The translations under genes were made by a program, and so were the position numbers. From NCBI GenBank assembly GCA_000091205.1, contig AP006489.2: a stretch of 64,000 nt of DNA; one strand, written 5' to 3'. The notes below the pieces were generated by a model. It searched no databases and was not told the DNA's origin. It saw nothing but the letters and a program-made list of their open reading frames with translations. Below, piece after piece: positions 1,245 to 39,829 of the stretch. This stretch comes from Cyanidioschyzon merolae (lineage: Eukaryota). Position 1 is the stretch's first letter; each line of letters opens with the position of its first letter.

Positions 1245-4200
1245 ATGTCGGTCGCGAAACGAAAACGAAGACCTGCTGTGCAGGAGCTTCACGGACATGT
1301 CGAAGGCTGGGACGGTCCCGAGTACGCATTCTTGCTGCCGGTAGGCGCTGCTGCGTGGCGTCTGCGTTTCGACGCATGGTCAGGTGCCCTGGCCGGCTCT
1401 ACCGTCGTGCCGGAGCGGGAGCCCGTGGAGGGTTCGGCTTTTCCGGCTCAGGCGGGCCGTCAGTTCTCAGTAGAGGGTTTCCTCACTAGCACGAGGAGGC
1501 TGTCAGTGCATACAGCGCCAAAATCGCAGGCAGAGGCGGAGGCGGACGTACAGCTGAGACCCTGCGACCCGCGCAAGCACCCCGACTCGTTGGGAACGGG
1601 ACATTGCAGGCTTCGCCTTCTTCCCGCGTTTCCGTCAGACGCGAATGATGCGAATGATGAACGAACATTGATCGTTTTGCATCTGAATAGGGCGATAACA
1701 GAAGCCTACCTTGTAGCCCAGTTTGGGCGCTACGGTCCCGTAGAGCAGGCGCTCGTGCATTGCGACGAGCGGGGCACCCCCATGGGATTTGCGAGCATCC
1801 GCATGAAGTCCAAAGACGCGTGCCGTCAAGCGCTTCGTGAAATGCACAACAAAATACTCATGGGCTCTCGAATACAAGTGTTTGTTGATCCAGGCGGAGA
1901 TACGGCTGCCGCTCGACGACGAGCGTTAATCGATAGAAGGAACCGCTGGGAGCAGGAGCAACGAGCACAACTGGAGAAGCATCGTCGGCCTGTTGAAGCA
2001 CAGGCGCTAGATGCAGCTGCCGGTGCTCGTGGCGTTCCCCACGCTAGCCAGCGACCTGCTGATCGATTGAGTTTGACGTCCGACCAGCAAGGCGCTAGTC
2101 CGGCGGCGAATGGCGCTAGAGCCGATACTCTTGGTGTACAGGGACCTGACGATCGACTGATTTTGGCGTCAGATCAGCAACGTACCAGCCCAGTAATGAC
2201 TGCAAGCAGCGCACAGCACGCTGCTGTGACTCGATATGCTTCACGAGACGAACGCGACCCTCGGCAACGAGCGACTTGCGCTGGGCGTCATGGTCTCGTA
2301 CGGAGCGTGCAAGCGTCTCTGGTGAATGACGCGAGTCGCCGTGCATTCGCTGACGCACCCGAACTGGATAGGGAGCGCCCAAATCACGCTGACAGGTCGG
2401 TTTCGGGTCTGGATGCGTACCGCTCAGCAACAGCACGAGGTACGATCGCCGGGAATGCCTCCCGTACTGAATCGGGGGTCAGCGTGGCCCGAACAGGGGC
2501 ACCAACCGCTGGTGGCAGCTTTTCCGAAGATGCCAGGGTCATTCAAGTGGCGGGCGTTCCGGTAAAGACGCCGAGATCCGTACTCATGTCGGCGTTTCGA
2601 CGATTCGGTAAGATTCTTCGGATCAAAGGATGTGCAGAGCCTGGGAAGCGCGATGCCAGCGAGTCAGCGGTAACGTCGACCGAAGCGGAATCGCAAACCC
2701 GTACGTTCCTCATGTACTTCAGAACGAGGGAGCAGGCGCTAGAAGCTGCAGCTCACATGGATCAGCACATGATCATGGGGAAGCGTGTTCGAGTCTCGTG
2801 TGTTGTCGACCAGGCAGTGGCGTCCGGTTCGCGTCCCGAAATTGGAAACGTCAGGGATGACGCTGTAGAGGGCGCAGGACATGCCCAGGGACTCTTGTCG
2901 AGAGCGTCGATGGGTGCAAATGGGCGACTGGTCCATTCGGGGGCATCTGGGCATCCATCTTGGAAGCGACTTTCAGAAAGAGGACGCAGCTGCACCAATG
3001 CGCCGTCAGGCGTTACCGAGGACGCTGCCGTACGGGGACGCGTCGCCGGAGACCGCACTTTATACAATGCAGCAAAGCCGGTCTGTCCGACAAACTTCTT
3101 GGTTTCCACTGAGATTCACGCGGTGCGTCTGAGCACGCTACCGTTCAATACACCGCACTATGAACTTAATGAGGCGTTGGCGAGCGCTCCCTGTTCTGTG
3201 CGAACTGTCGCTCGAGCGCCCTTCTGGTACGTCCTCTTCGCTGACGCCGCCGATTTGTATCGCTTTACACGTTGGCTTCGCAGTCGTAACCAGGAGCTGC
3301 TCGGTTGTAGCATTCTGTTCGAGGCTTGCCGGGTAACACTCGCAGAGGACGGCTCCGGAATCCACGAGGTGACGCTCATGAGGGCTGAGCGTTCCTTTGC
3401 GACGCGCCTGGAACTCCTGGATGCGATTGGCGACATCTTCGAAGGGCAAGTGCGTCATGCACTTCTGCGGGATCTGCATCGCGAGATTCTCGATAAGGTT
3501 GCACAACAAGTCATGGAGACGTTCGAGGCCCGCATGCGTGAAAAGCTCGCCCGTCAACGACTCGAATCCGGTGGCGACAAAGCAGCCAAACCTCCGCGAA
3601 TGGGATCCGTTTCGCTGGACGTACTACCCGAGCTGGCGATGAGGCAGCGTTCGCGACGTTCGCCGGGGTCCCAGCCAGGAGCACCCCCCGACCCGCAGTC
3701 AGCAGTCGAGAAGGGAGCGAGTGCCTCATCTGCGGTGGCAGAACTGGCCCGTTTATCATCGCGATCTTCACTCGATCGCGCTGCACACGACTCGCTCTCA
3801 GTATCGCTCTTGGAAGATGTGGCGCCCGACGAGGACCAGGTGTACCTGCAAAGAGTTTTAGAGTGCTGCTTCCAACCGACGGACGATGTGCCGCCTCAGC
3901 TGAGCGCTTCGATCGTCAGTACCCTGGACCAAGACAAAAGCGATATCGCTACGCGCTACCGCGAGCACTGGAGCCCGTATCTGGAAACCTTGTTCGATAC
4001 GCATGGAATATGTATCAAGCAGAAGCTGCAGGAACCAGAGCCGCCAGCAAACTCCACCGGCTGCGCGCGAACTGAAGGCTATGCGGCGTTTTCGCGTGAG
4101 CTCAAGGCATTCCGTTGGCGTCCGCCGAAACAAGTCATTATTCCGGCGGATGAGGCCCGGCGCTGGAGTGCCACCGGCAGCCTGCGTGGTACCCGCGTCG

Positions 4201-4700
4201 AGCAACGCCAGCTCCTCTCTGCGGTCAGTGATCGTGAACAGACCGTACTCTATCTGCAACAGCGCGAACGATTCCTGCGCTTCTACCGCTCTGGGATTCA
4301 TGGCTACGGCTTGTGGGCGCTCGAGGACATCCCCGCCGGTGACTACATCATTGAATACCGCGGGGAGCTGGTACGCTCTGCTGTGGCCGACCTACGCGAA
4401 CGTGCTTACCGCCAGCAGGGCATGGGCGACTCGTTCATGTTTCGTATCGACGCGGATACCGTTGTTGATGCAACCCACATTGGAAGCGTTGCCCGTTTCG
4501 TGAACCACAGCTGCGATCCGAACGCGATCGCCCGAATCGTGCAACTCGGTGGTGCATCCCATATTCTGTTTTACAGCAAGCGTTCGATCTGTGTGGGCGA
4601 GGAGATTACCTACGACTACAATTTTGATATTGAGGATGATGCCTCCGAGAAGGTACCATGTTTGTGTGGAGCACCCAATTGCCGTCAGTATTTGAACTGA
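1245..4700 (+). CDS. SET1: Set1-type histone H3K4 methyltransferase (RRM, N-SET-like region, C-terminal SET + post-SET)
   Basis: A long ORF ends in a canonical SET domain (GYGLWALEDI..., NHSCDPN, EEITYDYNF) followed immediately by post-SET cysteines (CLCGAPNCRQYLN) at the extreme C-terminus. An RRM-like segment lies upstream (LIVLHLNRAITEAYLVAQFGRYGPVEQALV...). The ORF-track start at 1155 is TTG, so the start was re-trimmed to the first ATG at 1245 (MSVAKRKRRP...). Confidence 0.8.
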   Translation: MSVAKRKRRPAVQELHGHVEGWDGPEYAFLLPVGAAAWRLRFDAWSGALAGSTVVPEREPVEGSAFPAQAGRQFSVEGFLTSTRRLSVHTAPKSQAEAEADVQLRPCDPRKHPDSLGTGHCRLRLLPAFPSDANDANDERTLIVLHLNRAITEAYLVAQFGRYGPVEQALVHCDERGTPMGFASIRMKSKDACRQALREMHNKILMGSRIQVFVDPGGDTAAARRRALIDRRNRWEQEQRAQLEKHRRPVEAQALDAAAGARGVPHASQRPADRLSLTSDQQGASPAANGARADTLGVQGPDDRLILASDQQRTSPVMTASSAQHAAVTRYASRDERDPRQRATCAGRHGLVRSVQASLVNDASRRAFADAPELDRERPNHADRSVSGLDAYRSATARGTIAGNASRTESGVSVARTGAPTAGGSFSEDARVIQVAGVPVKTPRSVLMSAFRRFGKILRIKGCAEPGKRDASESAVTSTEAESQTRTFLMYFRTREQALEAAAHMDQHMIMGKRVRVSCVVDQAVASGSRPEIGNVRDDAVEGAGHAQGLLSRASMGANGRLVHSGASGHPSWKRLSERGRSCTNAPSGVTEDAAVRGRVAGDRTLYNAAKPVCPTNFLVSTEIHAVRLSTLPFNTPHYELNEALASAPCSVRTVARAPFWYVLFADAADLYRFTRWLRSRNQELLGCSILFEACRVTLAEDGSGIHEVTLMRAERSFATRLELLDAIGDIFEGQVRHALLRDLHREILDKVAQQVMETFEARMREKLARQRLESGGDKAAKPPRMGSVSLDVLPELAMRQRSRRSPGSQPGAPPDPQSAVEKGASASSAVAELARLSSRSSLDRAAHDSLSVSLLEDVAPDEDQVYLQRVLECCFQPTDDVPPQLSASIVSTLDQDKSDIATRYREHWSPYLETLFDTHGICIKQKLQEPEPPANSTGCARTEGYAAFSRELKAFRWRPPKQVIIPADEARRWSATGSLRGTRVEQRQLLSAVSDREQTVLYLQQRERFLRFYRSGIHGYGLWALEDIPAGDYIIEYRGELVRSAVADLRERAYRQQGMGDSFMFRIDADTVVDATHIGSVARFVNHSCDPNAIARIVQLGGASHILFYSKRSICVGEEITYDYNFDIEDDASEKVPCLCGAPNCRQYLN

Positions 4701-5581: not shown

Positions 5582-6166
5582 ATGTGTTTGCGACACGTGC
5601 AGCGCGTTTCTCTCCTTCTGTTTCTCGGGTTTGCGGTACTTCTTGAGTTTGTGCCCAGTGAGGTGCACGGCTTCAGCTCCAACGACGTTCGAGCGAGACG
5701 CACTGTGTTTGTGGTCCACCCGCGCAGAGGCGGTACGCACCGTGTCTCGCTCGATACACCTCCGAACCCGGCAACGACGTGTACGTTTCGGTATGAGCAG
5801 GTGCAAGGTGCAACTCCGGAGACCTGGGAGCTTTTGATTTACGGAGATCGCACAGTAGGCGAGCTCGCTTGTCGAGCTCGGCGACTACCAGCGGCTCAAG
5901 CGACTGAACTTGGCGAGAACTTGGACGGTACCGGGATCGACTTAGCAGCCGAGCACGACTACGCTGCCCCGTCTTATCTGCTTTTCGAGGATATGCAGCT
6001 CGAACTTGGTGATAACGCGACGACAGTGATCGAAGCAGTGGCCTTCGACTCAAGCGGCGTACGGCTGGCGACCAGCGACCTCGTGTCGAGCGGTTCACAA
6101 CTGCGGACGCGTTCGGGGTTCATGGGAAATCTTCGAAGCGTGATGCTGAAGGCGCTACTTTACTGA
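5582..6166 (+). CDS. hypothetical protein with N-terminal signal-peptide-like hydrophobic segment
   Basis: The ORF track starts it with GTG at 5573. The first ATG (5582) gives MCLRHVQRVSLLLFLGFAVLLEFVPSEVHG..., a hydrophobic signal-like N-terminus. I recognise no domain. Confidence 0.3.
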   Translation: MCLRHVQRVSLLLFLGFAVLLEFVPSEVHGFSSNDVRARRTVFVVHPRRGGTHRVSLDTPPNPATTCTFRYEQVQGATPETWELLIYGDRTVGELACRARRLPAAQATELGENLDGTGIDLAAEHDYAAPSYLLFEDMQLELGDNATTVIEAVAFDSSGVRLATSDLVSSGSQLRTRSGFMGNLRSVMLKALLY

Positions 6167-6692: not shown

Positions 6693-8303
6693 CGATGACT
6701 TTTGAAGTACATGGAACGTATAGCCATGTTTGATTTTGTTTGTTTTTCTGGCAGGTATGCAACGAAAGGAATGCGTTTCGCAGACTGGGGAAAGGTCGGC
6801 AAGAGGCTCGATGGCGCCACTACTGGCTAGCGAAGAGAGGCCTTCGCATCAGAAGCAGCACAGAGTGCCTCCCTGGGGTCCGAGTGCACGAGCCACCTTT
6901 TGCGTCCGTTCGATATAGACCGCAAATATCAGACCAAGGCTCATGATCGCATCGTAGACTCTTCTGCATGGAGCTTTACGACCACCACCGTAGTGAGCAG
7001 CGGCAGATATCTGCGACCAATACGAAGCATTCGAGCAACACCGCAAAGCGCACTGGCGAGATACCTTGCTGTTAACCGAGAGGAAACGGGAAGACGTGTT
7101 TGCGAGGACGTCAAAGACCGGACGGAATATCAATCTGTATGCACATTGCGCAGCATCTGGACCAGCGTCTACCAAAGAGACTCATTCGCACCCGTTCAGC
7201 CCAGATGAAGACAACGTCTTCGCGATGGTGGTGTTCGTGCATCCCGAATCCAGGTGCATCGAAGCACTCGCCGTACCTGTAGATCAAGAGCACGGAGCCA
7301 GCGACCCAGGAAGAAACCAGATGAAGCTGCTCGATCTCCGGGGATTCTCTCTGGTAGGCAGCTGGGAATGATCGGCACCAGAGGGTATACCAGAAAATGG
7401 AATGCTGTTATCAGCACCAATCGCGACGCTCCGAGCTCTGCATCCAGCAGCGGGCGATGCTTGCGTCCGTTTCATTCAGAGCGTGCCAAAAACGTCCAAA
7501 CAGTTGATGCACGCGATACTCAGCGGGAATTCGGGACACCGCACCGGAGTCGCCGACAGTTTCGGCCGTATGGAGGCAACAAGCGCGCAAGTGTCGGGTT
7601 CTTCACTGATTTCGAACAGAAAATGACGAGAGGTTTGCGTCGTTTCGCGATAGCCTTCGGCGCTGGGCTTGAAGTTGCGCACACGCCCTGAACTCCTGCG
7701 CTCCGTCGACGAAAGCCGGCAGTGCGCACGGGAATCTGCGCTATACGATTCCCATCGGTGACTGAATCCCGGGCGACATCGATGCATCACGAGCGTGGGT
7801 GCTTGCTGCGACACGAATAGAAACAATCGTATGAAACAGCGTCGGATGCACGCCATGGTGTCCAGAAGGCTGAGCGGACGTCAGTTGGCGAGGCAATCGA
7901 AAAGCATTGCCCAGCTCGTGTGTGATGCCACCGGCTATCATGCACGCGAGCTCTCTCTCTCTCTGTGACGACTCGAACGCCTCCATTATTCACTGGGTAT
8001 GACCAGTGCTTCGAGAGCGTCCAGCGGCCTTGTGTCGAGCGAACGTTCCCGAAAATCGTTTCGTAATCAGCCTGGGCATCTTGCTGAAAAGCTGCAGCCT
8101 TGCGTCCAGAAACACAATGCATCAGTGACCAGGAGAACGCGCACTGGATGCTCACCCCGCAGGAACACACCGCTGTGCTTCGGGTGAGCAATCCATCAAG
8201 GCTGCAGCGACGTGCACCCATCCACCGGTAACGGTATTCCTCAACAGTATTTGAGCGATCATGGGGTTCCACGAATCAACTGTAGAGCGTATATCGCACA
8301 GCG
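6693..8303. repeat. Inverted repeat 1, arm A (~1.6 kb). It is a near-identical reverse complement of 12950-14551.
   Basis: Every ORF-track entry in 6730-8505 has a mirror-image twin on the opposite strand in 12674-14520 that differs by 0-1 aa; for example 7066..7371(+) equals 13879..14184(-). I located the boundaries by reverse-complement comparison: outer end ~6693 (..gatgacttttgaagtacatgg), inner end ~8303 (..gtagagcgtatatcgcac). Confidence 0.85.
7951..7964. repeat. (CT)7 microsatellite inside IR1 arm A. The arm B copy (13284-13299) is one dinucleotide longer.
   Basis: Arm A reads gcgag(ct)7gtgacg. Arm B reads cgtcacac(ag)7ctcgc, i.e. 16 nt versus 14 nt. This 2-nt difference explains why the mirrored ORFs of the two arms diverge after ...RVVT(E/Q)RER. 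Confidence 0.8.
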
Positions 8304-9161
8304 GTTGCCGTATCTGCCTAGGTGCTCGAAGATACTTGCCCGCAGAAACGCTGCTTGGTTTCGCGACACCTGAATTCGACTGGTAGGCAGGGGCCTGCAA
8401 TGCGCCGCCATCGGGGATGGAGAAACAGTTGCTTCGGAAGCCGCTTTCTAACAGGCCGTTACAATCAGACAGCACCGGTTTGGGAACTCGCGTCGACGTC
8501 GGCAAGTCTGTACTGCCTCAATGCAGCGGCCTCGATAAAGCCGGCACTCAGTAAAATGCCGGTTCTACTGAGTTTCGATTTTATCGGCGAACCCTGTTCT
8601 GGGCATGGCTGTTGTAAAGGCATCTGCAGAAGCGGGAGTGCATACGTCCACAGCGGCTTCCGTTTTGCACATTGGGCCGTGTCTGATTGAATGCATCGAT
8701 CACCTCCCGTGAAAATTCCTTTGAGAAAAGACTACAACGGAGGCGCTTCCATCCATGCCGCCCTCTGGCGGCAACAGATCCGCCTAATCCCCATCGCAGG
8801 GTACCAGGTGCAGTACTGCGGACAAGTGATATCCGCGGAAGCGACACTCCAGCCGACATCAGCCGCCTGCATTGATCGAAGTGACCGCCGCTTCTCACTC
8901 GACCATGCACTGTGTGAGCATTCGAGAGCAGCACGCAATTCATCACATACTATGTTCGACAAAGCCTGCGGTGTGCATTTCGCCAGAGATGCCAAAGACA
9001 AAACCGTTGTCGATGGCGGCTGGCCGAACCAGTTCAAAAAAGCGTCTCCAGGCATCTCTGAAGTTGTACGTTATGGAGCTTCGGGCCGAGAATCCGCATG
9101 CACTGCTCAGCGGCACGCCGCAGAATGTCCCGACGAGAACGTGCCTACACCACACCAGCCT

Positions 9162-9998
9162 TCAAGATAGGATAGACTCATCTTCGTCGTCAAGGACGCG
9201 CAAACTGGCCACTTCTACGATTCCTTGTTGATTTGTTTCGCGCTGAACGATTTCCTCGATCTCTCGAAACGCCCCAGGATCCGCCTGCACCGTCCAGAGA
9301 AGGGCACCGCCAGGCAACCACTCTTCCGACTCGCTCTCTACTGCGGCGCTGCCATCTTTCATTCGTACCGAGTCCGAACGAGAGGAACTGTGTGTACCGT
9401 CAGTTTCGCCTTGCTGCAACGGCTCCAGCCGGGCCTTGACCGCTTTGGCATCCCGCTGACTCGGTACGTGAATACGTAGACGCAGTCGTGCGCGCTCGAG
9501 GTCTAGACCACTCTGGGCTCGTAAGAGCGGTATCACTTCGAGCGCTTGTGCTTTTGCTGGTCGATTCGGCTGCACGGCAAAGTGGATCTCGCGAAGCGCT
9601 TTCTCAATGAGCCCAACAGGGAGCGGTTTCTTGGTCTCGCGACTGATGGTTTTCGCCGCCACAACACTCGCAATTTCATGAAGCTTTCGAGTGCTCTGGT
9701 ACTGGCGCTCGCGGTCCGACACCTGCAAGTCGCCGTGGAGCAGAATCTGGAGCAGCACAGCGTGCCGATCCCTGGTGCCAAAACAGCGCTCGAGGTCTGC
9801 GTTTGCGGCTAGTTTTCCCTTGGACACGTTCTCAAACACGTCCTCTACCTGGATCACCTCGTCGAGATCGCGAACGTGCCCCTCACGGTACGCCATAACC
9901 ATGTTCGGGTAGCATGCGATTTCGAAACGCTTGCCTCCTTTGCGCATGCGCACAACGCTCACGTTTGTAAGCCGTTTCTGAGTCACTGGTTGGAACAT
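9162..9998 (-). CDS. SBDS: SBDS/Sdo1 ribosome maturation factor
   Basis: [40 protein letters not shown]...LQVSDRERQ... aligns along its whole length with the SBDS family (human [36 protein letters not shown]...). The start was trimmed from the TTG/GTG-extended ORF (10046) to the ATG at 9998, which I checked as cat on the plus strand. Confidence 0.85.
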   Translation of the reverse strand: [278 protein letters not shown]

Positions 9999-11980
9999 GA
10001 TCACCCAGGAGAGGTTTCCTAGTTGTAAAATAGGTACACAGGCCACGAGCTGGCCCAGAAGGACCCCTACGCTCGGAGTGAATCAAGCAAATACCTCCAC
10101 AAGCACGAACGCTCCTGCGAGTACCACCACGCTGAACACCAGTCGAGCAGGAGCGAGTGGGCGCGCGGCGTCCGCTGGCGACGTGTCCGTTTTCCGGTAA
10201 CGCCACCGCTGCAGCGCGCCGGTCAGAGGCGTCACGCTCCTGTGACGCCTTAGGGGCATGCAAACGGCCCTGACAGCGATAGGATCGGTACCCGCGAACT
10301 GGATGAGGCGATTCCTCCCATGATTTGTTTGCTGAAGGTAGCGCTTGCTTGCTCGTGCTCGATGGCATGCTACAGGGTGCATGCCAGATGGCGAATGATG
10401 TTCGGTTCATTGGTCGATGTGGATCGTCATGGACGAGATGAGACTAGGGAAGAGGAGGCGGCAGGATATCTGGCGATCCGCGGCGTCGCTTGTCCATCGA
10501 CGCGTAAGGCTCGTGTGCGGCGGCCGTTCGCTCTCGAAAATGGGCCATATGCTCCATCGGATATCCAGGTGCACGAAGGCTAGCGTATGCTATCTCTGCG
10601 GAAGCGCGTCCGAACATGAAGATCAATCATAATCCATCGCTGGTTGATACTTTGAGCGCTGCATACGCATCGGGACGCGCTGGAATTCGGGTACAGATGA
10701 CCACGCACGCGTCCGCTGTGCTGCTCGGTGAGCGGGCGGTTGCGTTCACCAAAGTGCAGCCACGAGATGAAACGAGGTCGACGAGACTGCTTGGAAGCTC
10801 TCAGGGTGTTGCGACAGGTCGCTTTGTGGGCTACTGCTACCCACTGGATGCGGCGGAGACTCAAACGCACTCGCATGATTGCTATGAGCATCGCAGGGAT
10901 GCCAGCGGGAATCACGAGGCATCTGTCGCTCAGAGAGCCCTCGATCACGAACAGGAATGGAGTGTTTCGAGTGCTGTACAGCGCAAGAGCGGACGCCAAG
11001 AATCAGAACCCTGGAGATGCATTCAGAAACGCGTGCCGGCTGGTGCCTATCCTTGGGAGGAAGATCCGGCGAATTGTGCATGTCCATACTGGGGCGTGCT
11101 GCGCCAAGTCCCGTATCGCGTACCGACAGGGTCACCTTCACTCGATCGCAAATTGGAGACTCGACCCCAGGATTCATCCTCACAACCGAGTTTCTCGAAT
11201 GCATCGCGCCGCGAAAGCAGGTCTGTGTCCGCTGACTGCTCGAGCACAACCTGACAGTAAAAAAACCGGCCTCGCGCCCGATAGACCACACCCCGAGCTG
11301 ACACCCACTCTAGCATTGCAAAGTTGCCCTGTGTACGTGCAGCACCAGCTCTAGAGGCGCTATTGTGAACGCGAATGGCAGACACGGCGCACGATGCCGT
11401 GTGCGCAATGACCACCAGCACCACCACCATCGACCAGCAGGATGGTAAATGGAACTCGCTCATCGTGCATGGATCAATGGACGTTTCCCGAAACGCCAAT
11501 CTCAACGACTACGTCGGGAATTCCCTGGTCCGCATAAACCTGCTATCAGTCAAAGCGAATGCTGCGGGGTACCAGCATCATCGCCACAGGCACCATTCCA
11601 GGTAGCGAGCACGCGATCGCGGCAGCATCGAGCGCCACGCGACGTGGCGGGAAATGCGACACGCAGCCCAGATGTGCGATGCGTGATTGGCGCGTTTGCG
11701 GCAGTGCTCACGCAGGCTATCACTAATAGCGTTTCCAGGCGCTCTTTTCGATTTGTGCCACTCACTGGTGCTGTTCGTTGTGACGCTGAGTTCACGCAAC
11801 ATCAGCTCAGCTCGCTTACTCGAGACTCGAATCTGGTTACTGACTGCTGCCCGATCGTTGAGGTGTTCGAGTCTCGGAGCTATTGGAACGAGAACATTCG
11901 GGTGCTGACCCACAGGGTCCCGTTCGAGCACTGCGCGCTGTGAACGGCGTTATAGAAACGCACGAGGCAAAGTGCTGCAT

Positions 11981-12604
11981 ATGGCGAGCGGCAAGCGTAA
12001 AGGACTATCCTTCGATGACAAGAAAACCCGTTTGTTGGAGCTGTTCAATGAGACTTGCGATTTTTACACGTTAAAGGAGCTGGAGAAAATCGCCCCGAAA
12101 CTGAAAGGAATCATCACCCAGTCCGTCAAAGATGTGTTACAGTCGCTCGTAGACGATGATCTGGTGAACTCGGATAAATGCGGTGTCCAGACCATTTACT
12201 GGTGTTTGCCCTCAGAAGCCGTTGCCAAGAGGCAACGTCGGCTTGATGCGCTGCAACAGCAGCTGGCGGAGAAACGCCAAAAACTGACAGCGCTACAGCG
12301 CCAGCTGGTCCAAGTCCAGGCGGGTCGCGAGGACAGCGTTGAGCGTACAGCCGTACTGGAGAGGCTTGCAGCTTGTGAAGCGGCCTGGCGTGAACGGCAA
12401 CGAACGCTCGAGTCCTACCTCGAGTGCGACCCTGATGTCCTGGCGCAGCGCGAAACCGAAACCAAGACCCTGATTGAACAGGCAAATCGTTGGACCGATA
12501 ATCTCTACGTCATTCGAAGCTACGTCCAACGAAATCTAGGAGTTGACCTCGACCTATTCGATCAGCAGTTTGAGCTTAAGCCTGCGCTGCAGTATTTGGA
12601 GTGA
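11981..12604 (+). CDS. MND1: MND1 (meiotic nuclear division protein 1)
   Basis: [62 protein letters not shown]... closely matches the human MND1 N-terminus ([57 protein letters not shown]). The C-terminal coiled coil and the ANRWTDN motif are shared. ATG at 11981. Confidence 0.8.
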   Translation: [207 protein letters not shown]

Positions 12605-12910
12605 ACACGCATGCACAGGGTGCGGTATACCGTGCCTGCGGCCAGCGCTCTACCTCTATGTGTGCGCTGAGCGTTGGGCGGTGCTGCGTTCGCAGGTCGT
12701 CGTTTTCGTGATATCCTAAGGCTTGCGATGCCTGTAGCGTTAATCGTGCGAAAGCGGATTCGTCACGGGAACTTGACCGAAAGTCGCCTGGTGCGTGCAC
12801 CGCAACAGCACTCGATCCCGATGCGAAAGATCCTATGCGGTCTGATTCCTTTGTTCGTGGTAAAGGGAAAGCACCGTCAGAGGCTTGGGCCGCTCACGCG
12901 CTGCTCCGAG

Positions 12911-12947
12911 GCAGCCTGCTGCCGTCGTGGTATCGACGGCAGGCTGC
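12911..12947. other. Imperfect palindrome/hairpin (about 14-17 bp stem, 5-nt loop) directly abutting the inner boundary of IR1 arm B
   Basis: gcagcctgctgccgtcg tggta cgacggcaggctgc: the left arm is the reverse complement of the right arm apart from a 3-nt (cag) bulge. Arm B begins at ~12950. Confidence 0.6.
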
Positions 12948-12949
12948 GG

Positions 12950-14551
12950 TGCGATATACGCACTACAGTTGATTCGTGGAACCCCATGATCGCTCAAATA
13001 CTGTTGAGGAATACCGTTACCGGTGGATGGGTGCACGTCGCTGCAGCCTTGATGGATTGCTCACCCGAAGCACAGCGGTGTGTTCCTGCGGGGTGAGCAT
13101 CCAGTGCGCGTTCTCCTGGTCACTGATGCATTGTGTTTCTGGACGCAAGTCTGCAGCTTTTCAGCAAGATGCCCAGGCTGATTACGAAACGATTTTCGGG
13201 AACGTTCGCTCGACACAAGGCCGCTGGACGCTCTCGAAGCACTGGTCATACCCAGTGAATAATGGAGGCGTTCGAGTCGTCACACAGAGAGAGAGAGAGC
13301 TCGCGTGCATGATAGCCGGTGGCATCACACACGAGCTGGGCAATGCTTTTCGATTGCCTCGCCAACTGACGTCCGCTCAGCCTTCTGGACACCATGGCGT
13401 GCATCCGACGCTGTTTCATACGATTGTTTCTATTCGTGTCGCAGCAAGCACCCACGCTCGTGATGCATCGATGTCGCCCGGGATTCAGTCACCGATGGGA
13501 ATCGTATAGCGCCGATTCCCGTGCGCACTGCCGGCTTTCGTCGACGGAGCGCAGGAGTTCAGGGCGTGTGCGCAACTTCAAGCCCAGCGCCGAAGGCTAT
13601 CGCGAAACGACGCAAACCTCTCGTCATTTTCTGTTCGAAATCAGTGAAGAACCCGACACTTGCGCGCTTGTTGCCTCCATACGGCCGAAACTGTCGGCGA
13701 CTCCGGTGCGGTGTCCCGAATTCCCGCTGAGTATCGCGTGCATCAACTGTTTGGGCGTTTTTGGCACGCTCTGAATGAAACGGACGCAAGCATCGCCCGC
13801 TGCTGGATGCAGAGCTCGGAGCGTCGCGATTGGTGCTGATAACAGCATTCCATTTTCTGGTATACCCTCTGGTGCCGATCATTCCCAGCTGCCTACCAGA
13901 GAGAATCCCCGGAGATCGAGCAGCTTCATCTGGTTTCTTCCTGGGTCGCTGGCTCCGTGCTCTTGATCTACAGGTACGGCGAGTGCTTCGATGCACCTGG
14001 ATTCGGGATGCACGAACACCACCATCGCGAAGACGTTGTCTTCATCTGGGCTGAACGGGTGCGAATGAGTCTCTTTGGTAGACGCTGGTCCAGATGCTGC
14101 GCAATGTGCATACAGATTGATATTCCGTCCGGTCTTTGACGTCCTCGCAAACACGTCTTCCCGTTTCCTCTCGGTTAACAGCAAGGTGTCTCGCCAGTGC
14201 GCTTTGCGGTGTTGCTCGAATGCTTCGTATTGGTCGCAGATATCTGCCGCTGCTCACTACGGTGGTGGTCGTAAAGCTCCATGCAGAAGAGTCTACGATG
14301 CGATCATGAGCCTTGGTCTGATATTTGCGGTCTCTATCGAACGGACGCAAAAGGTGGCTCGTGCACTCGGACCCCAGGGAGGCACTCTGTGCTGCTTCTG
14401 ATGCGAAGGCCTCTCTTCGCTAGCCAGTAGTGGCGCCATCGAGCCTCTTGGCGACCTTTCCCCAGTCTGCGAAACGCATTCCTTTCGTTGCATACCTGCC
14501 AGAAAAACAAACAAAATCAAACATGGCTATACGTTCCATGTACTTCAAAAA
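12950..14551. repeat. Inverted repeat 1, arm B (reverse complement of 6693-8303)
   Basis: Same mirrored-ORF evidence as arm A. Inner boundary ~12950 (gtgcgatatacgcactacag), outer boundary ~14551 (..cttcaaaaagtcatcg|gactg). Confidence 0.85.
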
Positions 14552-14721
14552 GTCATCGGACTGAAAAGAACCCAAAGCATGCCCCGAGCGACAGCCGCCA
14601 GGCACTGGACCCGCAACCTTGGCGTCCAGCAGGATGCACCAAGTCGCATACACCGGAGGCACTTCCTTTCGCAAACCCGACCCATTGGCGGTGTCGTTGG
14701 TACACGTCGCCCCGTACTCCT

Positions 14722-16434
14722 ATGCGCGTAGCGTATGGATCAGCCCGAGGTGACTTGCGCTGGCGTGGTCAACTCCCGGAAGTAGACGGTGGCAAGTACA
14801 CTTGGGTCGGCGTCGAGTGGGACCCCGGCCCCGACGCTGACAAGCACGGGCGCCACGACGGTACCTTTCGAGGCAAGCGCTACTTCTCGTGCGAGCGAAC
14901 ACCGGCACGTGCGAGCTTCGTGCGCGCAGACCAGGTACACTTTCCACAGTCTCTGGGTTACCTTCTTGACGCGTACCAAAAACCAGGGACGCAGACGCAA
15001 CCGGGCGATGTGTCAGGATCGACGGAGCAACCGGCTGCTGGCGTAGCTCCGCTAGTCTCCGCTTGTCTGGCACGATCATGTGTCGTCTGGAACCCAGCTG
15101 AATCGGCGTTGGTTGCTGAACGTCACGGGAAAAGTGTTCGGTACTTGGACATATCTTTTGGACTTATCGAGTACTACGAAGACGTCGCAGAAATCCTGCA
15201 GACTTTTCCGAGACTTGAAGAGCTGGACATTTCGGGAAATCGATTGCGACCCCGCAACTCAACTACGATTTCGCCAAATCATGCGCTCAGCTCTATTGCG
15301 TGGGTGTCTCAGTCACTGCGGATTCTACGCTGGAACTGCGCAGGTGTCGAGACTTCGATCGCGGCGCTCGCTCAACTCGTCCTTGGTTGCACGGTGCTCG
15401 AGGAGTTGCGCCTCCATGGGAATCATATTCGACTTGAAGTACGCAGTACGAACACGACCATACTGCCTCGATCACTTACGCGCCTCTACTTGGGAGCGAA
15501 TCATTTGGAATGTGTTGCTTGTCTGCCGTCGCCTGAGCTCGAATTACTAGACTTGAGCGAGAACCCTGCACTGGATCGCTTGGGAGCGCCAGCCTCTTCC
15601 ACAGAGTGCTTTGCGCCACGGCTCTCTTCGCTGAACTTGACGGATACCTCATTCGTTTGCCTCGAGTTTCTAGCGGATCCCAATCACTTTCCGCAACTAC
15701 GTAACTTGCGTCTCCGCCATCTTCCACGGGATCACATTATAGCCCGAATGCCGTATCTAGAAAAACTGAATGGTTCAGAGATCACTGCTGCTGAGCGGCG
15801 GGAAGCAGAGCTGCGATTTCTCGCCGACTGGTCAACTGCTGCACAGGACGCGTTTGCATCGTCGCCTCTCAAGCGCCGTGTGGAAGCGCTTTGTCGCCAG
15901 TACGGTGTGAAAGCAGAGGCGCCTCTTCCACTGCCGTCGCCTCTGCCACACATGGAACGGGGATACGTTCCAGTGGTACTCGGGCAGCTGCGCATGGACG
16001 CGCCAGTGCCGACGCGGATTCCTCTTGCATCCCTCTCGCAATGCCAGCAGCAGCAGCAGCAGCAGCAGCTACTGCTGCAAGTACCAGCGTCCACACCTTG
16101 GTGGCTAGCGGAACGCATCGCCTTCACACAGTTGTCCGGGATCCGGAATCAGCTGGTATCGCCTCCGTCCGATGATCGTCATCATGTCGTCGTGCATCTA
16201 GCGTATGCAACCGCACATGAGCTTGCTTTGCAACCTCAACCCGATTGGCTGACAACGCTAGAAGAGCTTGATTCAGCTGGAAAGAGCCCAGTTTATGTGC
16301 TGGTCCACATCGAAAGGAACAAGTCACATGTCAAATGCTGCGACTCGAAGAGCGCTGCATCCGCGGCTGACGGTCTAGACGCGAACGCACCAGCCACTGA
16401 GACGCCAAGCCAATCAGTGCCGCTTGAATCGTAA
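14722..16434 (+). CDS. TBCE: tubulin-folding cofactor E-like (CAP-Gly domain + leucine-rich repeats); contains a CAG-encoded polyQ
   Basis: CAP-Gly signature MRVAYGSARGDLRWRGQLPEVDGGKYTWVGVEWDPGPDADKHGRHDGTFRGKRYFSCERTPARASFVR, followed by LRR units (LEELDISGNRL..., LEELRLHGNHIRL..., LELLDLSENPAL...). The first ATG is at 14722; the ORF-track start at 14488 is TTG and lies inside IR1 arm B. polyQ from (CAG)n at 16045-16069. Confidence 0.7.
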   Translation: MRVAYGSARGDLRWRGQLPEVDGGKYTWVGVEWDPGPDADKHGRHDGTFRGKRYFSCERTPARASFVRADQVHFPQSLGYLLDAYQKPGTQTQPGDVSGSTEQPAAGVAPLVSACLARSCVVWNPAESALVAERHGKSVRYLDISFGLIEYYEDVAEILQTFPRLEELDISGNRLRPRNSTTISPNHALSSIAWVSQSLRILRWNCAGVETSIAALAQLVLGCTVLEELRLHGNHIRLEVRSTNTTILPRSLTRLYLGANHLECVACLPSPELELLDLSENPALDRLGAPASSTECFAPRLSSLNLTDTSFVCLEFLADPNHFPQLRNLRLRHLPRDHIIARMPYLEKLNGSEITAAERREAELRFLADWSTAAQDAFASSPLKRRVEALCRQYGVKAEAPLPLPSPLPHMERGYVPVVLGQLRMDAPVPTRIPLASLSQCQQQQQQQQLLLQVPASTPWWLAERIAFTQLSGIRNQLVSPPSDDRHHVVVHLAYATAHELALQPQPDWLTTLEELDSAGKSPVYVLVHIERNKSHVKCCDSKSAASAADGLDANAPATETPSQSVPLES

Positions 16435-16681: not shown

Positions 16682-19600
16682 CTATTGCGTCTCACCATTT
16701 GCCTGAGATGTGCTCACAAAATCGCTGCCCGACAGGATACCGAGTTGCTTGGCGATTTCCCGTAAACGCTCAATACACACCTTGTTTGTCTCATCGTGGA
16801 CATGGTAGCGCTCGAGAAACAACCGCACCTGGGACGCAGCAGATCGATCCGGAATCGTACGCAGCAGGAGATCGTCGTTCTCGAGCTCACGATCGTGACT
16901 CGAGCTTCGCTGCTGGCGTACCAACATAAGCGTTTCCGCCAGTGCGAGGTATGCCTCCGCAAGCGTGAACTGCTGTGGTGGCTGCGGCGCCGTCTGCTGG
17001 AGCCCAGCCCCGGCCGAAGCCATCTTTTTCGACCCGAACTGCGACGGACGTGTCGCTGTCTCGAGTGCTCGGATCGTCTTGCGACTGTACTCAAGCGCTT
17101 CCGCTAGATTGCCGTGCCTGGTTGCACAACGACGCAACGCGTCCCAAACGATCGGATCGCTGATACCTGTCGCTGCTACACTGCGTAACAGCGACTCAAG
17201 GGCGCTCATTTGACGCACCCTGACCGGGTCATCCACATGCACATCCTGGTCGGTAACCGAGGTTTCATCCAGAACGTCGCTCATGGCAGCGAGTATCGCT
17301 GCGAGAGCGGCGTGATCGTAGCCGTCGCGTCCGCGAAACTCGAGGAGCTTGCTCTGTGCTCGAAGTGCCAACGCCCATTCTTTGGCACCAGTGGCAGCGA
17401 TCAGGAGATTCTGCCATACCTGCCATGATTCAGGGCGTAAACGGGCCGCTTCTGCGAAACACTTGACAACGCGGTGTCGTTTGAGCATTGACGCTGGGTT
17501 ACCCGCTTCCTCGGCCATGGTCTGCCGCAGGAGAGCATGCCCTAGGTTGCTCCAGGCCTCGGCATGCTCGGGTTCGTACTGCACGGCGCTTGTGTAGGAC
17601 TCAGAGGCCCAGTCCCAGCGTCCAAGTTTCTGTGCACAAAAGCCACAAGCGAACCATATATCCTGGTGCAGGGGATTCACAGTCAGCGCTCGGCGAAAAT
17701 GTTCATAGGCACGCTGCCAGTCGCCACGGCGCATTGCCAGGCGTCCAAGTGAACGCTGGGCTCGTGCGTATCGCTCACCGCTGATTTGCCAGGCTTGGTT
17801 GTAGAGCGCCTCGGGGGTGCGATGTTCGTCCAGCGGGCGATCTCGTTCAGGCATCATGACCAACACATCGCCGAGCACACAGAGCAAACGCGGACTACGG
17901 TCACGGACGCGAAGCAGCTCTATGAGCATTTGGTAGGCTCGCGTCCAGTTGCCCATGAGTCGGTGGCAATCGACTGCGTGCTCCCACATCTCGAGTGATT
18001 GGAAAACGTCCAGTGCGGATTTCACCAAACCGAGACGACCGAGCATCCCGGCCCATTCGCGTTGCATCTGCCATCGTAGTGGATAGGCAGTAGCGAATGC
18101 GTACCAGAGGTGCTTCGTCAGTTCAGGTCGAGGTTGCGTGTCGTTGTAAAAGCGTTCCACAAGTTCCTCCATTTGCTCCATGACTCTTTCCTGAAATCGA
18201 GCACGATCTAGTTCGAGGCGAGTGCGCACGAGTAGCGCATATGCTCGAAGCAGGGCGTGCTCTGCCTGCGCTTCGGTTGATCGCTCGGTTGCCTCGATGA
18301 TGTACTCCACACAAGACCGAATGTTTTCCTTTGAGAGCGCAGTTGTGACCTGTTGTGAAGCATCAATGGCTACAAGTCCCGAAAGCAAGATACAATCTGT
18401 GACTGAGAGCGGATGTGGTGATACCTGCTCAGAGCCGACGCTCTCGATGCATACCGTATGGCCCAGGTACTCGTCGTCGCGCAGCGGTATTGCACGTGGC
18501 ATTCCCGCTGCATATGGAGACGAGTGAGCGTCTCGAACGACCACTGCCGCAGATTCGGTCTCCGGAGGTGCATCAGTCCCTTGATGATCATGTGCGGAAG
18601 CAGGCAACACCGCACGGCAACTCGAGTCCGGTATCATGACCGCTTGGCTACTGGGCACTGCACAGCTCGCTTTGCTTGCCGACTCGAGGCGAGGCTCGCT
18701 TCCGAACGAGCGTGCCTCTGCTGTCGTTCCGCAACATTCGAGAGTGGCACCCCGAGACGTTGCCCCAGATAGATCCAGGCTGCTCGCATTGTCGTGCTTC
18801 TCCTTGTTTTGGCAATCCGTTTCGCGACGATCAACCCTAGTCGCTGTTTCAGGCGGGACGGCATCCTCGTTACAATGGGTTCCACAGTGTCCGGTGGCAT
18901 GTTCAGCACAGCGCCTTCCGCCAGAAACCGGGTGCGTATCGGGTGCTGGAGTCCCATCGTGGCTTGTGGTGCTGATGCTGCTGCTGCGGTCGATACGCAC
19001 ACGCAACAACGCCATGGGGCGCTTCTGGTACCGCAGTCGAATGCCACGTTCGCCGCTGAAGCAGATGCGGGCACCTATCCTGCTCGCAGCATGCTCCAGA
19101 AACTCCCTCGCAACTTCTCCGAAGCTATAATAATGGTTCATCAGAGAGAACTCCATACTGGACAGGAAAGTTTCGGCGAGCGTTCCATCGAATGTCCATG
19201 AAGCGGTAACCTGCTGCATCCGGTAGCGAGGTCGGCTGAAAGGCGGCACCACAACCTGCACCTCAATCGTATTCGAGAGCGCTATAGCTTTCCCAATACT
19301 CAGGATCTGGTCCCGCAAAAGCGCAGATGGACCTGATAAACACTGTTGGTAGAGCCACAGTGCGCGAACATACCACCAGGCCTGATACGCTGAGGTCCAG
19401 TCCAGCTCAGCGAGGCACCGCGTCGCCTCCAGCAGGGCACAGGCAGGCGCGCACGCCGCTAGCCAGTCTTCGCCATCAACAGCGAGAGTGTCTCGTTCGG
19501 GCTCCTTCGTGGACCTGGTGACCCGAAGTGGCCAAGTGGCAGGAAGCGGCGGCCCCGTCCACTGATCACGCACGAACGCAAGTATCAAAGCTATGGCGCG

Positions 19601-19840
19601 TAGGTAGTGTGCCCAAAAGTGTGCGTTTGAAGCAGATTCCGCTACGAGTACCTGCTCTTGGGCGTTTACGAAACCTAGTGCGGTTTCAATGTCGCGGCGG
19701 ACAAGGTGCAAGGCCAAGTCTTCGAGATGCGGTGCAGTTTGGTCGCCGCCAATGTTCTCCGCTACAAGCCGGCGAAGATCCGCAGCCCCCAGGTCACGTG
19801 TATCCGCACCCGACCACAGCAGCTGCTCCAAAGCGGTCAT
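16682..19840 (-). CDS. TPR-repeat protein (TTC27-like candidate)
   Basis: The 1050-aa ORF has TPR-like units in its C-terminal half (..ALTVNPLHQDIWFACGFCAQKLGRWDWASESYTSAVQYEPEHAEAWSNLGHALL..). The track start at 19870 is GTG; the first ATG (MTALEQLLWS) is at 19840. Confidence 0.55.
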   Translation of the reverse strand: MTALEQLLWSGADTRDLGAADLRRLVAENIGGDQTAPHLEDLALHLVRRDIETALGFVNAQEQVLVAESASNAHFWAHYLRAIALILAFVRDQWTGPPLPATWPLRVTRSTKEPERDTLAVDGEDWLAACAPACALLEATRCLAELDWTSAYQAWWYVRALWLYQQCLSGPSALLRDQILSIGKAIALSNTIEVQVVVPPFSRPRYRMQQVTASWTFDGTLAETFLSSMEFSLMNHYYSFGEVAREFLEHAASRIGARICFSGERGIRLRYQKRPMALLRVRIDRSSSISTTSHDGTPAPDTHPVSGGRRCAEHATGHCGTHCNEDAVPPETATRVDRRETDCQNKEKHDNASSLDLSGATSRGATLECCGTTAEARSFGSEPRLESASKASCAVPSSQAVMIPDSSCRAVLPASAHDHQGTDAPPETESAAVVVRDAHSSPYAAGMPRAIPLRDDEYLGHTVCIESVGSEQVSPHPLSVTDCILLSGLVAIDASQQVTTALSKENIRSCVEYIIEATERSTEAQAEHALLRAYALLVRTRLELDRARFQERVMEQMEELVERFYNDTQPRPELTKHLWYAFATAYPLRWQMQREWAGMLGRLGLVKSALDVFQSLEMWEHAVDCHRLMGNWTRAYQMLIELLRVRDRSPRLLCVLGDVLVMMPERDRPLDEHRTPEALYNQAWQISGERYARAQRSLGRLAMRRGDWQRAYEHFRRALTVNPLHQDIWFACGFCAQKLGRWDWASESYTSAVQYEPEHAEAWSNLGHALLRQTMAEEAGNPASMLKRHRVVKCFAEAARLRPESWQVWQNLLIAATGAKEWALALRAQSKLLEFRGRDGYDHAALAAILAAMSDVLDETSVTDQDVHVDDPVRVRQMSALESLLRSVAATGISDPIVWDALRRCATRHGNLAEALEYSRKTIRALETATRPSQFGSKKMASAGAGLQQTAPQPPQQFTLAEAYLALAETLMLVRQQRSSSHDRELENDDLLLRTIPDRSAASQVRLFLERYHVHDETNKVCIERLREIAKQLGILSGSDFVSTSQANGETQ

Positions 19841-23119: not shown

Positions 23120-23149
23120 TGACACAGCCAACAACAAACGCCTTTGAAA

Positions 23150-25068
23150 AGAAAAACGCTGCCGCCAGTGGTGCACAGTAGTGGCGGCGAACGCGCCCCG
23201 GACAAGCAGTCTCCAGCTGACGGGCAGACGCATCCCAGCCTTGCTGGGCAGGCCACCCACCACTGGTTTCAACTTTTTCTCATATAGTTGGACTTTGAGA
23301 GGTTGTCCAACAAAGTTCTCTCTTGTCTGCTGTGGAGGTCTTTTCTCAATCGCCGCGCATCTCCTTATATTGACGGCGGCGTTAAAGTCTCGGTTCACAA
23401 ACCGCATACGTTTCTTGCCGTCGTTGGTTGTACTTACGAATGCGAGTAGCCCTCGCACTTTTGTTCTCCTCTCCATTTGCACCTCCGGCAGCGGTCCGTA
23501 CTTTGCTATGTCTTCAGGACTCCCCTGGCGCTTTTCCATCTCGACCCTTTGAAGTGTACACTCCAGCTCATGGTGTGTATCGGACGTTCGGAACTCATCT
23601 ATCCGTATCGTAACAAAACGCCGTGCATTCTCCTTGTACGTTCTTGTCGTTGGAGCTGGCGGAGTCCCTTTGTGGGTCTTCCAGCGCCCCACTCCGTATG
23701 CTACTACGAGCCTCTGACTTTCAAGCTCTCTCAAGGCACTCAACTCATTGAAAAATTCGCGAACGCCCGCTGCTGACCACAATACGGATTCATACGCAAA
23801 CGAGCCCACCGGGGCTTTGTATACTCTTCCCACAGCGCCTCCCAAGGAGCAACATGAACATCCATGCATTTCAGAAAAGCTTCAAAGTCCGCTGCGCGGC
23901 TCGTCACCTTGCTCATAGCTTCCAGGTGCTTCTTCAATCCAGCATTCTCTATCTCGATTTTCTTCCTTGCATTCATTATACCGGATTCTCGGTAGTATCT
24001 CGCTCTCGAGAACCTCAAACGACGCATGTCGTTCTGACGTAATTTACTGTGCGTACCGTATTCCGCACGCTGGGGTACTGCGATGGTTATGATATTTGTG
24101 TTTCCGGGGTCCGCGCCAACGACAAAGTCGTTATTCTCTACCTCTTGCGTCGCAGGATCCTCCTCTTTGTTTTCCTCATGCTTCGCCGCGCCAACGACAA
24201 GGTCGTTATCCTCTACCTCCTGCGTCGCAGGACCCGCCTTCTCCTTGTCTTCATCCTTCGTGACGGGCGCAGCCGAGGGAGGGACTGGCCGGGCTCTCTT
24301 CAACCGCCGATAGTGTATACACAAGGCTACTCCATCGGTTTCAATCATCAAAGTGAACAATTTTTGCTTGCTCACTCTCAAACGTTTAAAATTGAAGATA
24401 TTCTTCCAGTACGTCTCCCGGTTCTCGCCGGCGAAGTCCTCCCTGCTAACGTTGAACTCCGAACAGATCTCCTTCATGATGCCATGAAGGATTCCGGAGT
24501 CGATAGTCCCAAAATGTGACTTGATATTGGACAATGGGACCACGTTGAAGCGCTTCCCCATTAGGAAATCCTTCCGTCTCTCCCACTCTTCATTTGTCTC
24601 TTCACGCAGCATCACCGCTGCCTTGGCTTCGAGCTCTCGGTCCAGAAACACGAAATAGCACAGAATGAGGCGATCGTATCTTTCCTGATCTTTGCTCAAC
24701 TCTGATACCTTGTCTGTTGGATTCGGTAGCCCCAGTACCGCACGATGCTCTTGTATAACCGTACGGATCGCAGAAGCTTCATTCGTGCTCACTTTTGACG
24801 CCTTCTTGTCGACAAATTCGACCTCATCTTCACGCTTGCGATCTTTCATGATGCCATTGATAATCGTCCATTTTCCATTGCGAGAGATGCGCGGGTAGAG
24901 TGCAACCACGGCGCGTATCATGAAACGTTCGAGGTCCATTGTCAAATGGTTCTTCAGGTCCGTGAGGTACTTCTTCGCCCCGTAGGTGTACATATCCCGG
25001 TCACCCTTGTAGCGAGTACCCTCGAAGCTGTAAAAGGGGTGTTTTTCGTGGAGGGTATGCACTAGCAC
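23150..25068 (-). pseudogene. TnpB/Fanzor-like RuvC nuclease, disrupted copy
   Basis: Same protein as copy B, but the ATG of copy B is AGG here (tgatgg versus tgaggg), leaving no in-frame ATG. A 1-bp deletion in a T-run (gcgaatttttcaatgag versus gcgaattttttcaatgag in copy B, near 23756) splits the reading frame into ORFs 23740..25068 and 22853..23869. Confidence 0.65.
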
Positions 25069-26301: not shown

Positions 26302-26614
26302 AGAGGCATCGCACACATGTAGCGTGCATATGTAGCACCGCGTTCGACCGACGCATTTCGCCCGGAACGATCGAGGCACCAGCAGCACAAGGCGCTGCAC
26401 CGACCTGAAGGACGGGCGGAGAGGCCCGGCAAGAGTAAATATTGTATAAAGTAGCATATTTAGGAATCTATATGATCCATTTTGCATACGCTGCACGAAA
26501 CGCTTGTCGCACTTGCGAACGCTTTGCAAGCGCTATCCGACAGCGCGTTTCAAGGGCGAACGCGTGCGTCTCGACGTAAAACCCACTGTGTGGAGGCGCT
26601 AGGAGCGCTCTAGA

Positions 26615-39600: not shown

Positions 39601-39787
39601 ACAGCAGACAAGAGAGAACTTTGTTGGACAACCTCTCAAAGTCCAACTATATGAGAAAAAGTTGAAACCAGTGGTGGGTGGCCTGCCCAGCAAGGCTGGG
39701 ATGCGTCTGCCCGTCAGCTGGAGACTGCTTGTCCGGGGCGCGTTCGCCGCCACTACTGTGCACCACTGGCGGCAGCGTTTTTCTTTA
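36619..39787 (+). mobile_element. TnpB/Fanzor-like nuclease element, copy B (intact ORF)
   Basis: Reverse-complement twin of 23150-26301. 5' boundary ~36619, with diverged homology back to ~36470. 3' boundary 39787, immediately after ..caccactggcggcagcgtttttcttt. A GC-rich imperfect hairpin (gccgcca N14 tggcggc, 39746-39773) lies 15-40 nt inside the 3' end. The two copies share no terminal inverted repeat. Confidence 0.7.
37832..39787 (+). CDS. TnpB/Fanzor-like RNA-guided-nuclease-family protein (RuvC-I/II/III, degenerate zinc finger), ~651 aa to the element end. There is no stop codon; the ORF continues in frame into the aminopeptidase gene downstream.
   Basis: RuvC-I: ..[20 protein letters not shown] (D331). 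TS/zinc-finger region: [23 protein letters not shown]. RuvC-III: [19 protein letters not shown] (D572), the classic DxNAAxNI motif. The order and spacing match TnpB/Cas12/Fanzor. The ATG at 37832 is preceded by an in-frame TGA. The ORF track lists the read-through as 37832..41404. Confidence 0.65.
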
Positions 39788-39829
39788 GACAGGCTTTTGT
39801 TTTCGCTGCCGTCGTCCTCCAGAAGCAAA

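Follow-up and report, generated by a model that had tools for sequence, protein, structure and literature searches.

Fanzor1 is a eukaryotic relative of the bacterial RNA-guided nuclease TnpB. In Cyanidioschyzon merolae, a novel interspersed element was described with 253 copies, a mean length of 3.2 kb and a share of about 5% of the genome; its truncated open reading frame (ORF) weakly resembles WSV486 of white spot syndrome virus (Nozaki et al. 2007, PMC1955436). The Fanzor1 element CMe-1A of the same species was reported to number about 150 copies with a length of about 3 kb and about 80% identity to the consensus, and to lack terminal inverted repeats (TIRs) and detectable target-site duplications (TSDs); a Fanzor1 is also listed in the shrimp white spot syndrome virus (Bao & Jurka 2013, PMC3627910). 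Here we analyze a pair of 1.6-kb inverted repeats that bracket the genes SBDS and MND1 in a stretch of 64,000 nucleotides (nt), referred to as the window, from the nuclear genome of C. merolae 10D (contig AP006489.2, on a 584,452-bp chromosome). Both arms of the pair carry the decayed remains of a Fanzor1 element. With moderate confidence, we explain the pair as a local inverted duplication of one dead relic, specific to the C. merolae lineage, whose two copies owe their continued similarity to gene conversion. The repeat and the segment that it encloses are as follows.

6693-8302, plus strand: arm A, in which the relic runs inward from the outer end (repeat search, BLASTN/MAFFT and end inspection).
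12946-14559, minus strand: arm B, the reverse complement of arm A, in which the relic likewise runs inward from the outer end.
8303-12945, 4643 nt: unique central segment, potentially invertible, carrying the divergent pair SBDS/MND1.
7951-7964 in arm A, mirrored at 13286-13299 in arm B, no strand: (CT)7 microsatellite.

A repeat search of the window returned two adjoining inverted matches, 6700-7967/13283-14550 (1268 nt, 100%) and 7951-8302/12946-13297 (352 nt, 99%), which BLASTN and MAFFT join into a single alignment of 1626 columns with 99.08% identity. A 1.6-kb match at 99% far exceeds chance, and the inverted repeat proposed by a first-pass annotation of the sequence is real. The arms differ by 8 internal substitutions and by two indels, one of 1 nt at a distance of 6 nt from the outer end and one of 2 nt at 7963. 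This last one had been taken for a one-unit difference in (CT)n length; in fact the (CT)7 run is equally long in both arms, and the 2-nt difference is an additional TG alongside the run. Among environmental copies of the arm the length of the CT run does vary. Sequence identity drops to random immediately beyond both arm ends, and neither the alignment nor a six-frame profile scan of the window detected homology past the ends such as longer ancestral copies would leave. No TSDs or TIRs were found at either arm when the junctions were inspected, in agreement with the first-pass annotation. An assembly artefact of the reference would be another way to obtain such a repeat, and it deserves hardly any credence, nothing having been found in its favour. 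The arms differ by the 8 substitutions and 2 indels and so were assembled separately. Independent environmental assemblies recover the junctions with the left and the right flank, and contigs of the central segment break off within an arm at either end.

The environmental copies also carry length changes of their own. An arm A copy in contig L020 (locus positions 1963-2303) contains a 131-nt tandem duplication close to the outer end, and the arm copy of L028 has a 9-nt deletion at 7333-7341; the arms thus tolerate indels. A short perfect hairpin, CTGCCGTCG ... CGACGGCAG, directly adjoins arm B on its inner side (12900-12945), about 300 nt 3′ of the MND1 stop codon.

The content of the arms becomes evident at the protein level. 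Arm A shows two collinear tblastx matches to a 3.2-kb element at 36617-39801 of the window, in different arm frames and with a spacing of 368 versus 366 nt, the stronger of them having 31% identity over 58 amino acids (aa). A hidden Markov model (HMM) of the family was built from 36 sequences, that is, the ORF of the 3.2-kb element and 35 homologues of at least 450 aa out of 75 homologues collected. This HMM matches arm A with 38.9 bits (E 1e-13) at HMM positions 417-568, in plus-strand frames only, and both arms match it in a six-frame scan of the entire window. After 300 dinucleotide-preserving shuffles of the arm, the score never rose above 2.4 bits. BLASTP with the arm segment retrieves dozens of family proteins with 28-34% identity over about 150 aa and E-values down to 2e-20. 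The HMM, BLASTP and shuffle results make the homology of the arms to the family of the 3.2-kb element solid. The recognizable parts of the relic are listed below.

7365-7832, plus strand: Fanzor1-like pseudogene core of arm A (HMM 417-568; 38.9 bits).
7018-7339, plus strand: weaker collinear upstream part, in another frame (HMM 298-407).
7970-8050, plus strand: weak collinear downstream part, in a third frame (HMM 605-631).
13418-13885, minus strand: pseudogene core of arm B (27.8 bits, E 3e-10).

In the core of arm A, AFGAG and TESRAT stand for the family motifs AYGAG and DEFRTS, and two in-frame stops are present. The RuvC-I motif GADPG has decayed to FVHPE in the upstream part, while the downstream part retains DSNASI for the RuvC-III motif D-x-N-A-A-x-N-I. 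Altogether the relic spans profile positions ~190/298 to 631 of 652 and is followed by a 3′ tail of about 250 nt. The first ~190-300 profile positions are absent, such that the relic is 5′-truncated, with approximately the 3′ half of the ORF and the 3′ tail of the element remaining. It is distributed over three reading frames, with two or more frameshifts and two or more in-frame stops that are common to both arms, and its 3′ ends point inward, facing the 3′ ends of SBDS and MND1. An intact ORF with the RuvC catalytic triad, as a working Fanzor1/TnpB-like nuclease gene would have, is absent from the arms. Judged from these features, each arm is a dead, 5′-truncated Fanzor1 pseudogene relic.

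At the DNA level, the arm shows no similarity to the other elements and relics in the window besides one stretch of 29 nt, 90% identical, in common with a relic at 31576-32085. Strict membership in CMe-1A (about 3 kb, about 80% DNA identity) does not apply to arms that are 1.6 kb long and lack DNA similarity, as measured indirectly by comparison with the two full-length copies in the window instead of the Repbase consensus. The low protein identity and the decay mark the arm relic as an old, dead member of a deeply diverged Fanzor1 sublineage. The first-pass annotation had described the pair as unrelated to the nuclease element of the window, without similarity to it, and as possible copies of an uncharacterised element. 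The profile match overturns the first statement at the protein level, since both belong to the same Fanzor1/TnpB-like family, and the second does not hold because the family is the known main interspersed repeat of C. merolae described in PMC1955436 and PMC3627910. On the other hand, the same annotation was right that the arms are intergenic and encode no working protein.

Two other identities for the arms were tried and rejected. A working protein gene is contradicted by arm ORFs with no Pfam or NCBIfam match and by the longest opposite-strand ORF, whose length of 161 aa in one arm versus 177 aa in the other indicates that it is not constrained. A non-coding RNA gene is contradicted by searches of the whole window, which gave no Rfam match at the gathering threshold and no tRNA or tmRNA. 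C. merolae is not known to possess the core RNA interference machinery; if it indeed lacks it, a small-RNA role of hairpin transcripts from the arms is not expected. The arm pair has no demonstrated function.

The family itself could be recognized through its profile. With the ORF of the 3.2-kb element as a single sequence, phmmer against PDB as well as Pfam and NCBIfam searches came back empty, and the only precomputed Pfam label of the family is DUF8286. A family profile of 21 sequences was needed; it matches the Fanzor1 structures of Parasitella (9cf0, E 4e-17) and Spizellomyces (8gkh, E 1e-11), and 8 of its 21 members weakly match the Cas12f1-like TNB domain. The protein of the 3.2-kb element carries the motifs GADPG, AYGAG, DEFRTS and DFNAAVNI. 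In total the window holds six copies or relics of the family, namely the two 1.6-kb arms and the following four.

23133-26315 and 36617-39801: second inverted pair, full-length Fanzor1 elements of about 3.2 kb with ORFs pointing outward.
31576-32085, minus strand: Fanzor1 pseudogene fragment between the 3.2-kb arms (74.7 bits).
35951-36249, plus strand: Fanzor1 pseudogene fragment between the 3.2-kb arms (12-26 bits).

The members of the second pair are 98-99% identical, lie 10.3 kb apart, and are about 9 kb away from the 1.6-kb pair. The left copy is split over three reading frames, whereas the right copy is nearly intact. Since published copies are only about 80% identical to the consensus, the 98-99% similarity of the 3.2-kb pair is unusual. 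The site of the left 3.2-kb arm is empty in Cyanidiococcus yangmingshanensis and in a second relative, where the Tim10-LRR gaps are short and the retrieved loci, which do not reach the site of the right arm, give no Fanzor signal. An ORF of 1190 aa at 37832-41404 (plus strand) arises where the ORF of the right 3.2-kb element continues without a stop into an M18 aminopeptidase gene; the joint ORF is probably a coincidental read-through in the ORF listing, not a true fusion.

The locus can be compared with its counterparts in relatives. The genes around and between the arms, identified by exact protein look-up and Pfam unless stated otherwise, are the following.

1245-4700, plus strand: SET/RRM protein, BAM79557.
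5582-6166, plus strand: UPF0556-like ORF of 194 aa at the left flank (Pfam UPF0556, E 4e-8).
9162-9998, minus strand: SBDS, BAM79558.
11981-12604, plus strand: MND1, BAM79559.
14722-16434, plus strand: tubulin-folding cofactor E (TBCE), BAM79560, the right-flank gene.
16682-19840, minus strand: TPR protein, BAM79561.

The arms are intergenic, located 3′ of the divergent SBDS/MND1 pair, and no annotated feature lies inside them. Arm A begins 527 nt past the stop of the ORF at 5582-6166, and the outer end of arm B lies 163 nt 5′ of the TBCE start codon (14722). The TBCE orthologue of C. yangmingshanensis (50% identity) was found on a 434-kb NCBI contig, on which gene order and strands equal those of 10D: SET (+), UPF0556 (+), SBDS (-), MND1 (+), TBCE (+), TPR (-) and onward. 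In the second relative, from a Joint Genome Institute (JGI) metagenome, the order matches 10D for the recognised genes, the UPF0556 gene not being identified there. The coding regions of both relatives are collinear with the window on the same strand, and their syntenic loci show no arm similarity, no Fanzor profile signal and no inverted repeat. The UPF0556-SBDS gap measures 1296 nt in C. yangmingshanensis versus 2995 nt in 10D, and the MND1-TBCE gap 544 nt versus 2115 nt, each 10D gap thus being longer by about 1.6 kb, the length of an arm. The second relative has larger gaps (MND1-TBCE 1648 nt), still without the arm. The alignment with the relatives is restricted to coding regions, and their intergenic DNA did not define an empty site. 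With the same gene order and no arms in the relatives, the arms are additions peculiar to the C. merolae lineage, and the central segment has its ancestral orientation in the reference.

Within the available data the arm is restricted to this locus. The search for further copies covered metagenome collections, in the form of near-identical DNA and of called ORFs. Five metagenome contigs matched a 30-mer taken from within the arm, and all five lie at the SBDS-MND1 locus. In a homologue search among 5.8 billion proteins, a 145-aa ORF of the arm found its own cluster alone, and exact look-ups of this ORF always gave the left-flank gene or SBDS as neighbours. No dispersed near-identical copy appeared in the metagenome contigs or protein clusters, and multiple dispersed copies with the same termini, by which an active or recently active element would be known, were not seen in the metagenome collections. 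Two copies, close together and absent at the orthologous loci of the relatives, are the configuration of a local inverted segmental duplication. Of the origins that the first-pass annotation had left side by side, the recent inverted segmental duplication is thereby the one favoured.

Alternatively, a 1.6-kb non-autonomous element derived from Fanzor and mobilised in trans could have inserted twice, the second time by a local hop into the adjacent intergenic region in the opposite orientation. Two insertions would explain why the ends of both arms are sharp and identical, why each arm makes an otherwise conserved gap between genes about 1.6 kb longer, and why a second inverted pair with full-length members lies 9 kb off in the window. 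The lack of a TSD or TIR does not count against them either, since the family has dispersed without both (PMC3627910). Nevertheless, recent activity should leave more than two copies, and no further near-identical one occurs in the metagenome DNA or protein clusters. No active partner is evident, since the arms share only 28-34% aa identity with the family and no DNA similarity with the copies in the window. We regard two insertions as unlikely.

The frameshifts and stops shared by the arms, their same sharp ends and the lack of another near-identical copy make the local copying of a single decayed relic the most likely course. In the proposed sequence of events, a Fanzor1 fragment would have entered the locus solely in the C. 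merolae lineage. This relic, already decayed, would then have been copied locally in inverted orientation, for instance by template switching in replication or repair. Today the relic flanks the ancestral SBDS-MND1 pair to the left and to the right, oppositely oriented and with its 3′ ends inward. Since the copying, intrachromosomal gene conversion would have maintained the likeness of the two copies. Mechanically, homologous recombination can act on the pair, which would homogenise the arms and could turn the 4.6-kb segment around.

The environmental sequences are informative on the homogenising step. In unique DNA, environmental C. merolae-like contigs diverge from 10D by 0.34-0.71%. The two arms of 10D diverge from each other by 0.50% (8 of ~1610 sites), which does not exceed the divergence between strains, and the repeat occurs in every strain examined. 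The base at site 6865 is G in either arm of 10D and C in all 23 of the environmental arm copies, regardless of which flank the copy is linked to. Of the differences between arms A and B, the outermost (6698/6699) and the innermost (8300) alone track their flanks across strains. Those at 7737 and 8098 are each private to one 10D arm, and the remaining ones are polymorphic in both flank contexts. Site 6865 and the shared polymorphisms form the pattern expected of gene conversion between arms, which we infer to have taken place.

Several points weigh against a local duplication followed by conversion. The case for conversion consists of one clean site plus shared polymorphisms, and short-read assemblies, from which at least some of the environmental contigs come, may blend arms. 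Inspection of the junctions revealed no breakpoint microhomology or other signature of a duplication mechanism. The 29-nt stretch ties the arm to a second relic in the window, and older, diverged copies of the arm sublineage with the same termini may exist in the 16.5-Mb genome, which would favour transposition.

The same environmental contigs bear on the orientation of the central segment. The first-pass annotation had proposed a flip-flop inversion of the SBDS-MND1 segment, and the geometry of the arms permits it. The large cruciform that had been proposed along with it is unlikely, as extrusion is improbable for an inverted repeat with a 4.6-kb spacer. Inversion would be nearly silent or neutral, since the divergent pair would turn as a whole, together with the upstream region that the two genes share, and in either state both genes would face an identical arm. 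Among contigs that cross a whole arm, the reference joins are represented by L010 and L020 (left flank-arm-SBDS side) and by L024 and L030 (right flank-arm-MND1 side), and the flipped join of left flank-arm-MND1 side by L009/L025, L026, L027 and L028. Many further contigs stop at the arm boundary.

A recombination switch, in which the segment flips through the arms in natural populations and both orientations coexist, would account for the two orientations seen among the contigs. In every contig, the arm variants at the outermost and innermost positions agree with the immediate flanks, and polymorphism common to both arms fits ongoing exchange. However, short reads cannot span a 1.6-kb repeat, and either path through it is legal in the assembly graph, so that a flip is plausible but unproven. 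The halting of many contigs at arm ends also speaks against the switch. L026-L028 begin 209-280 nt 5′ of the MND1 start codon, as transcript assemblies would, and may follow the best-covered branch, in which case their flipped join could stem from a coverage-driven choice. Contigs that link the right flank with the SBDS side were not encountered, though they were not specifically looked for, and both relatives as well as the finished 10D sequence show one orientation. Phasing the environmental contigs by arm variants was attempted as a way to settle the inversion, and it was uninformative because the interior variants are common to both contexts. Illumina short-read metagenomes and metatranscriptomes of a 10D-like C. 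merolae population have been produced in a study of Lemonade Creek (PMC11662350); the newer JGI samples used here may belong to that project. A literature search turned up no relevant reports of inversion or structural variation at the SBDS-MND1 locus. On balance a switch operating in nature is plausible, though less likely than not, and the local duplication with conversion stays the preferred account, with two separate insertions as its main rival.

Some features of the locus stand apart from the repeat. The five genes with accessions bear the consecutive C. merolae 10D numbers BAM79557 to BAM79561. The UPF0556-like ORF at 5582-6166 is missing from the C. merolae 10D proteins in NCBI, UniRef and EukProt; it is conserved, gene calls including it both in C. 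yangmingshanensis and on many environmental contigs, and is likely a gene overlooked by the reference annotation. Nine environmental contigs (L001-L008 and L010) begin or end within about 35 nt of each other around window positions 10106-10140, roughly 110-140 nt 5′ of the SBDS start codon, and two of the nine are chimeric there with unrelated sequence. These ends fit either a local assembly problem or, should the assemblies derive from RNA, the start of transcription. A tandem array at 51800-52499 consists of about 6 units of 115-116 nt with 89-98% identity.

Both inverted pairs in the window trace to one transposon family, and arms that had seemed unknown are fossils of the known Fanzor1 repeat. 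The family and the arrangement are of known kinds, and no new type of element or mechanism is revealed. The locus illustrates how dead transposon fragments can still shape genome structure, and it is a test case for whether inverted repeats flip or evolve in concert in a tiny, readily recombining haploid genome. It also matters to those who engineer C. merolae through homologous recombination, given that identical inverted sequences of 1.6 kb adjoin SBDS, MND1 and TBCE. Of greatest interest is whether inverted pairs of Fanzor origin, of which the window has two, bring about inversions in the field. It is conceivable, and in our estimate improbable, that Fanzor1 elements tend to form nearby, near-identical inverted pairs that lead to recurrent inversions of the enclosed genes in natural populations. 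If this were true, a transposon family of RNA-guided nucleases would be a source of structural polymorphism in one of the most streamlined genomes among eukaryotes, and the segment affected here would be the one with MND1, a gene of meiosis, and SBDS, a gene of ribosome maturation.

Compared with known systems, the arm is closest to CMe-1A. It keeps a protein remnant of the same family with the motif order RuvC-I, AYGAG, DEFRTS and D-x-NAA-x-NI, and it likewise has no TIRs or TSDs. It differs in being half as long owing to the 5′ truncation, in its frameshifts and stops, in its apparent confinement to one locus, and in its divergence, with 28-34% aa identity and no DNA similarity to the copies in the window as against about 80% identity of published copies to their consensus. 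Composite transposons such as Tn10 and Tn5 similarly place two inverted copies related to insertion sequences around unrelated genes. The arms here, however, encode nothing functional, and the SBDS-MND1 cargo remains at its ancestral syntenic position, so that, unlike Tn10 and Tn5, the unit has not moved as a whole. In architecture, the pair recalls the plastid inverted repeats and the palindromes of the primate Y chromosome. The present arms contain no functional genes, are small at 1.6 kb, offer support for conversion from one clean site only, and enclose a segment whose flipping is unproven. What they share with the plastid repeats and Y palindromes are arms in the kilobase range with about 99% identity, a unique spacer, a geometry that allows inversion, and evidence of concerted change, here from site 6865.

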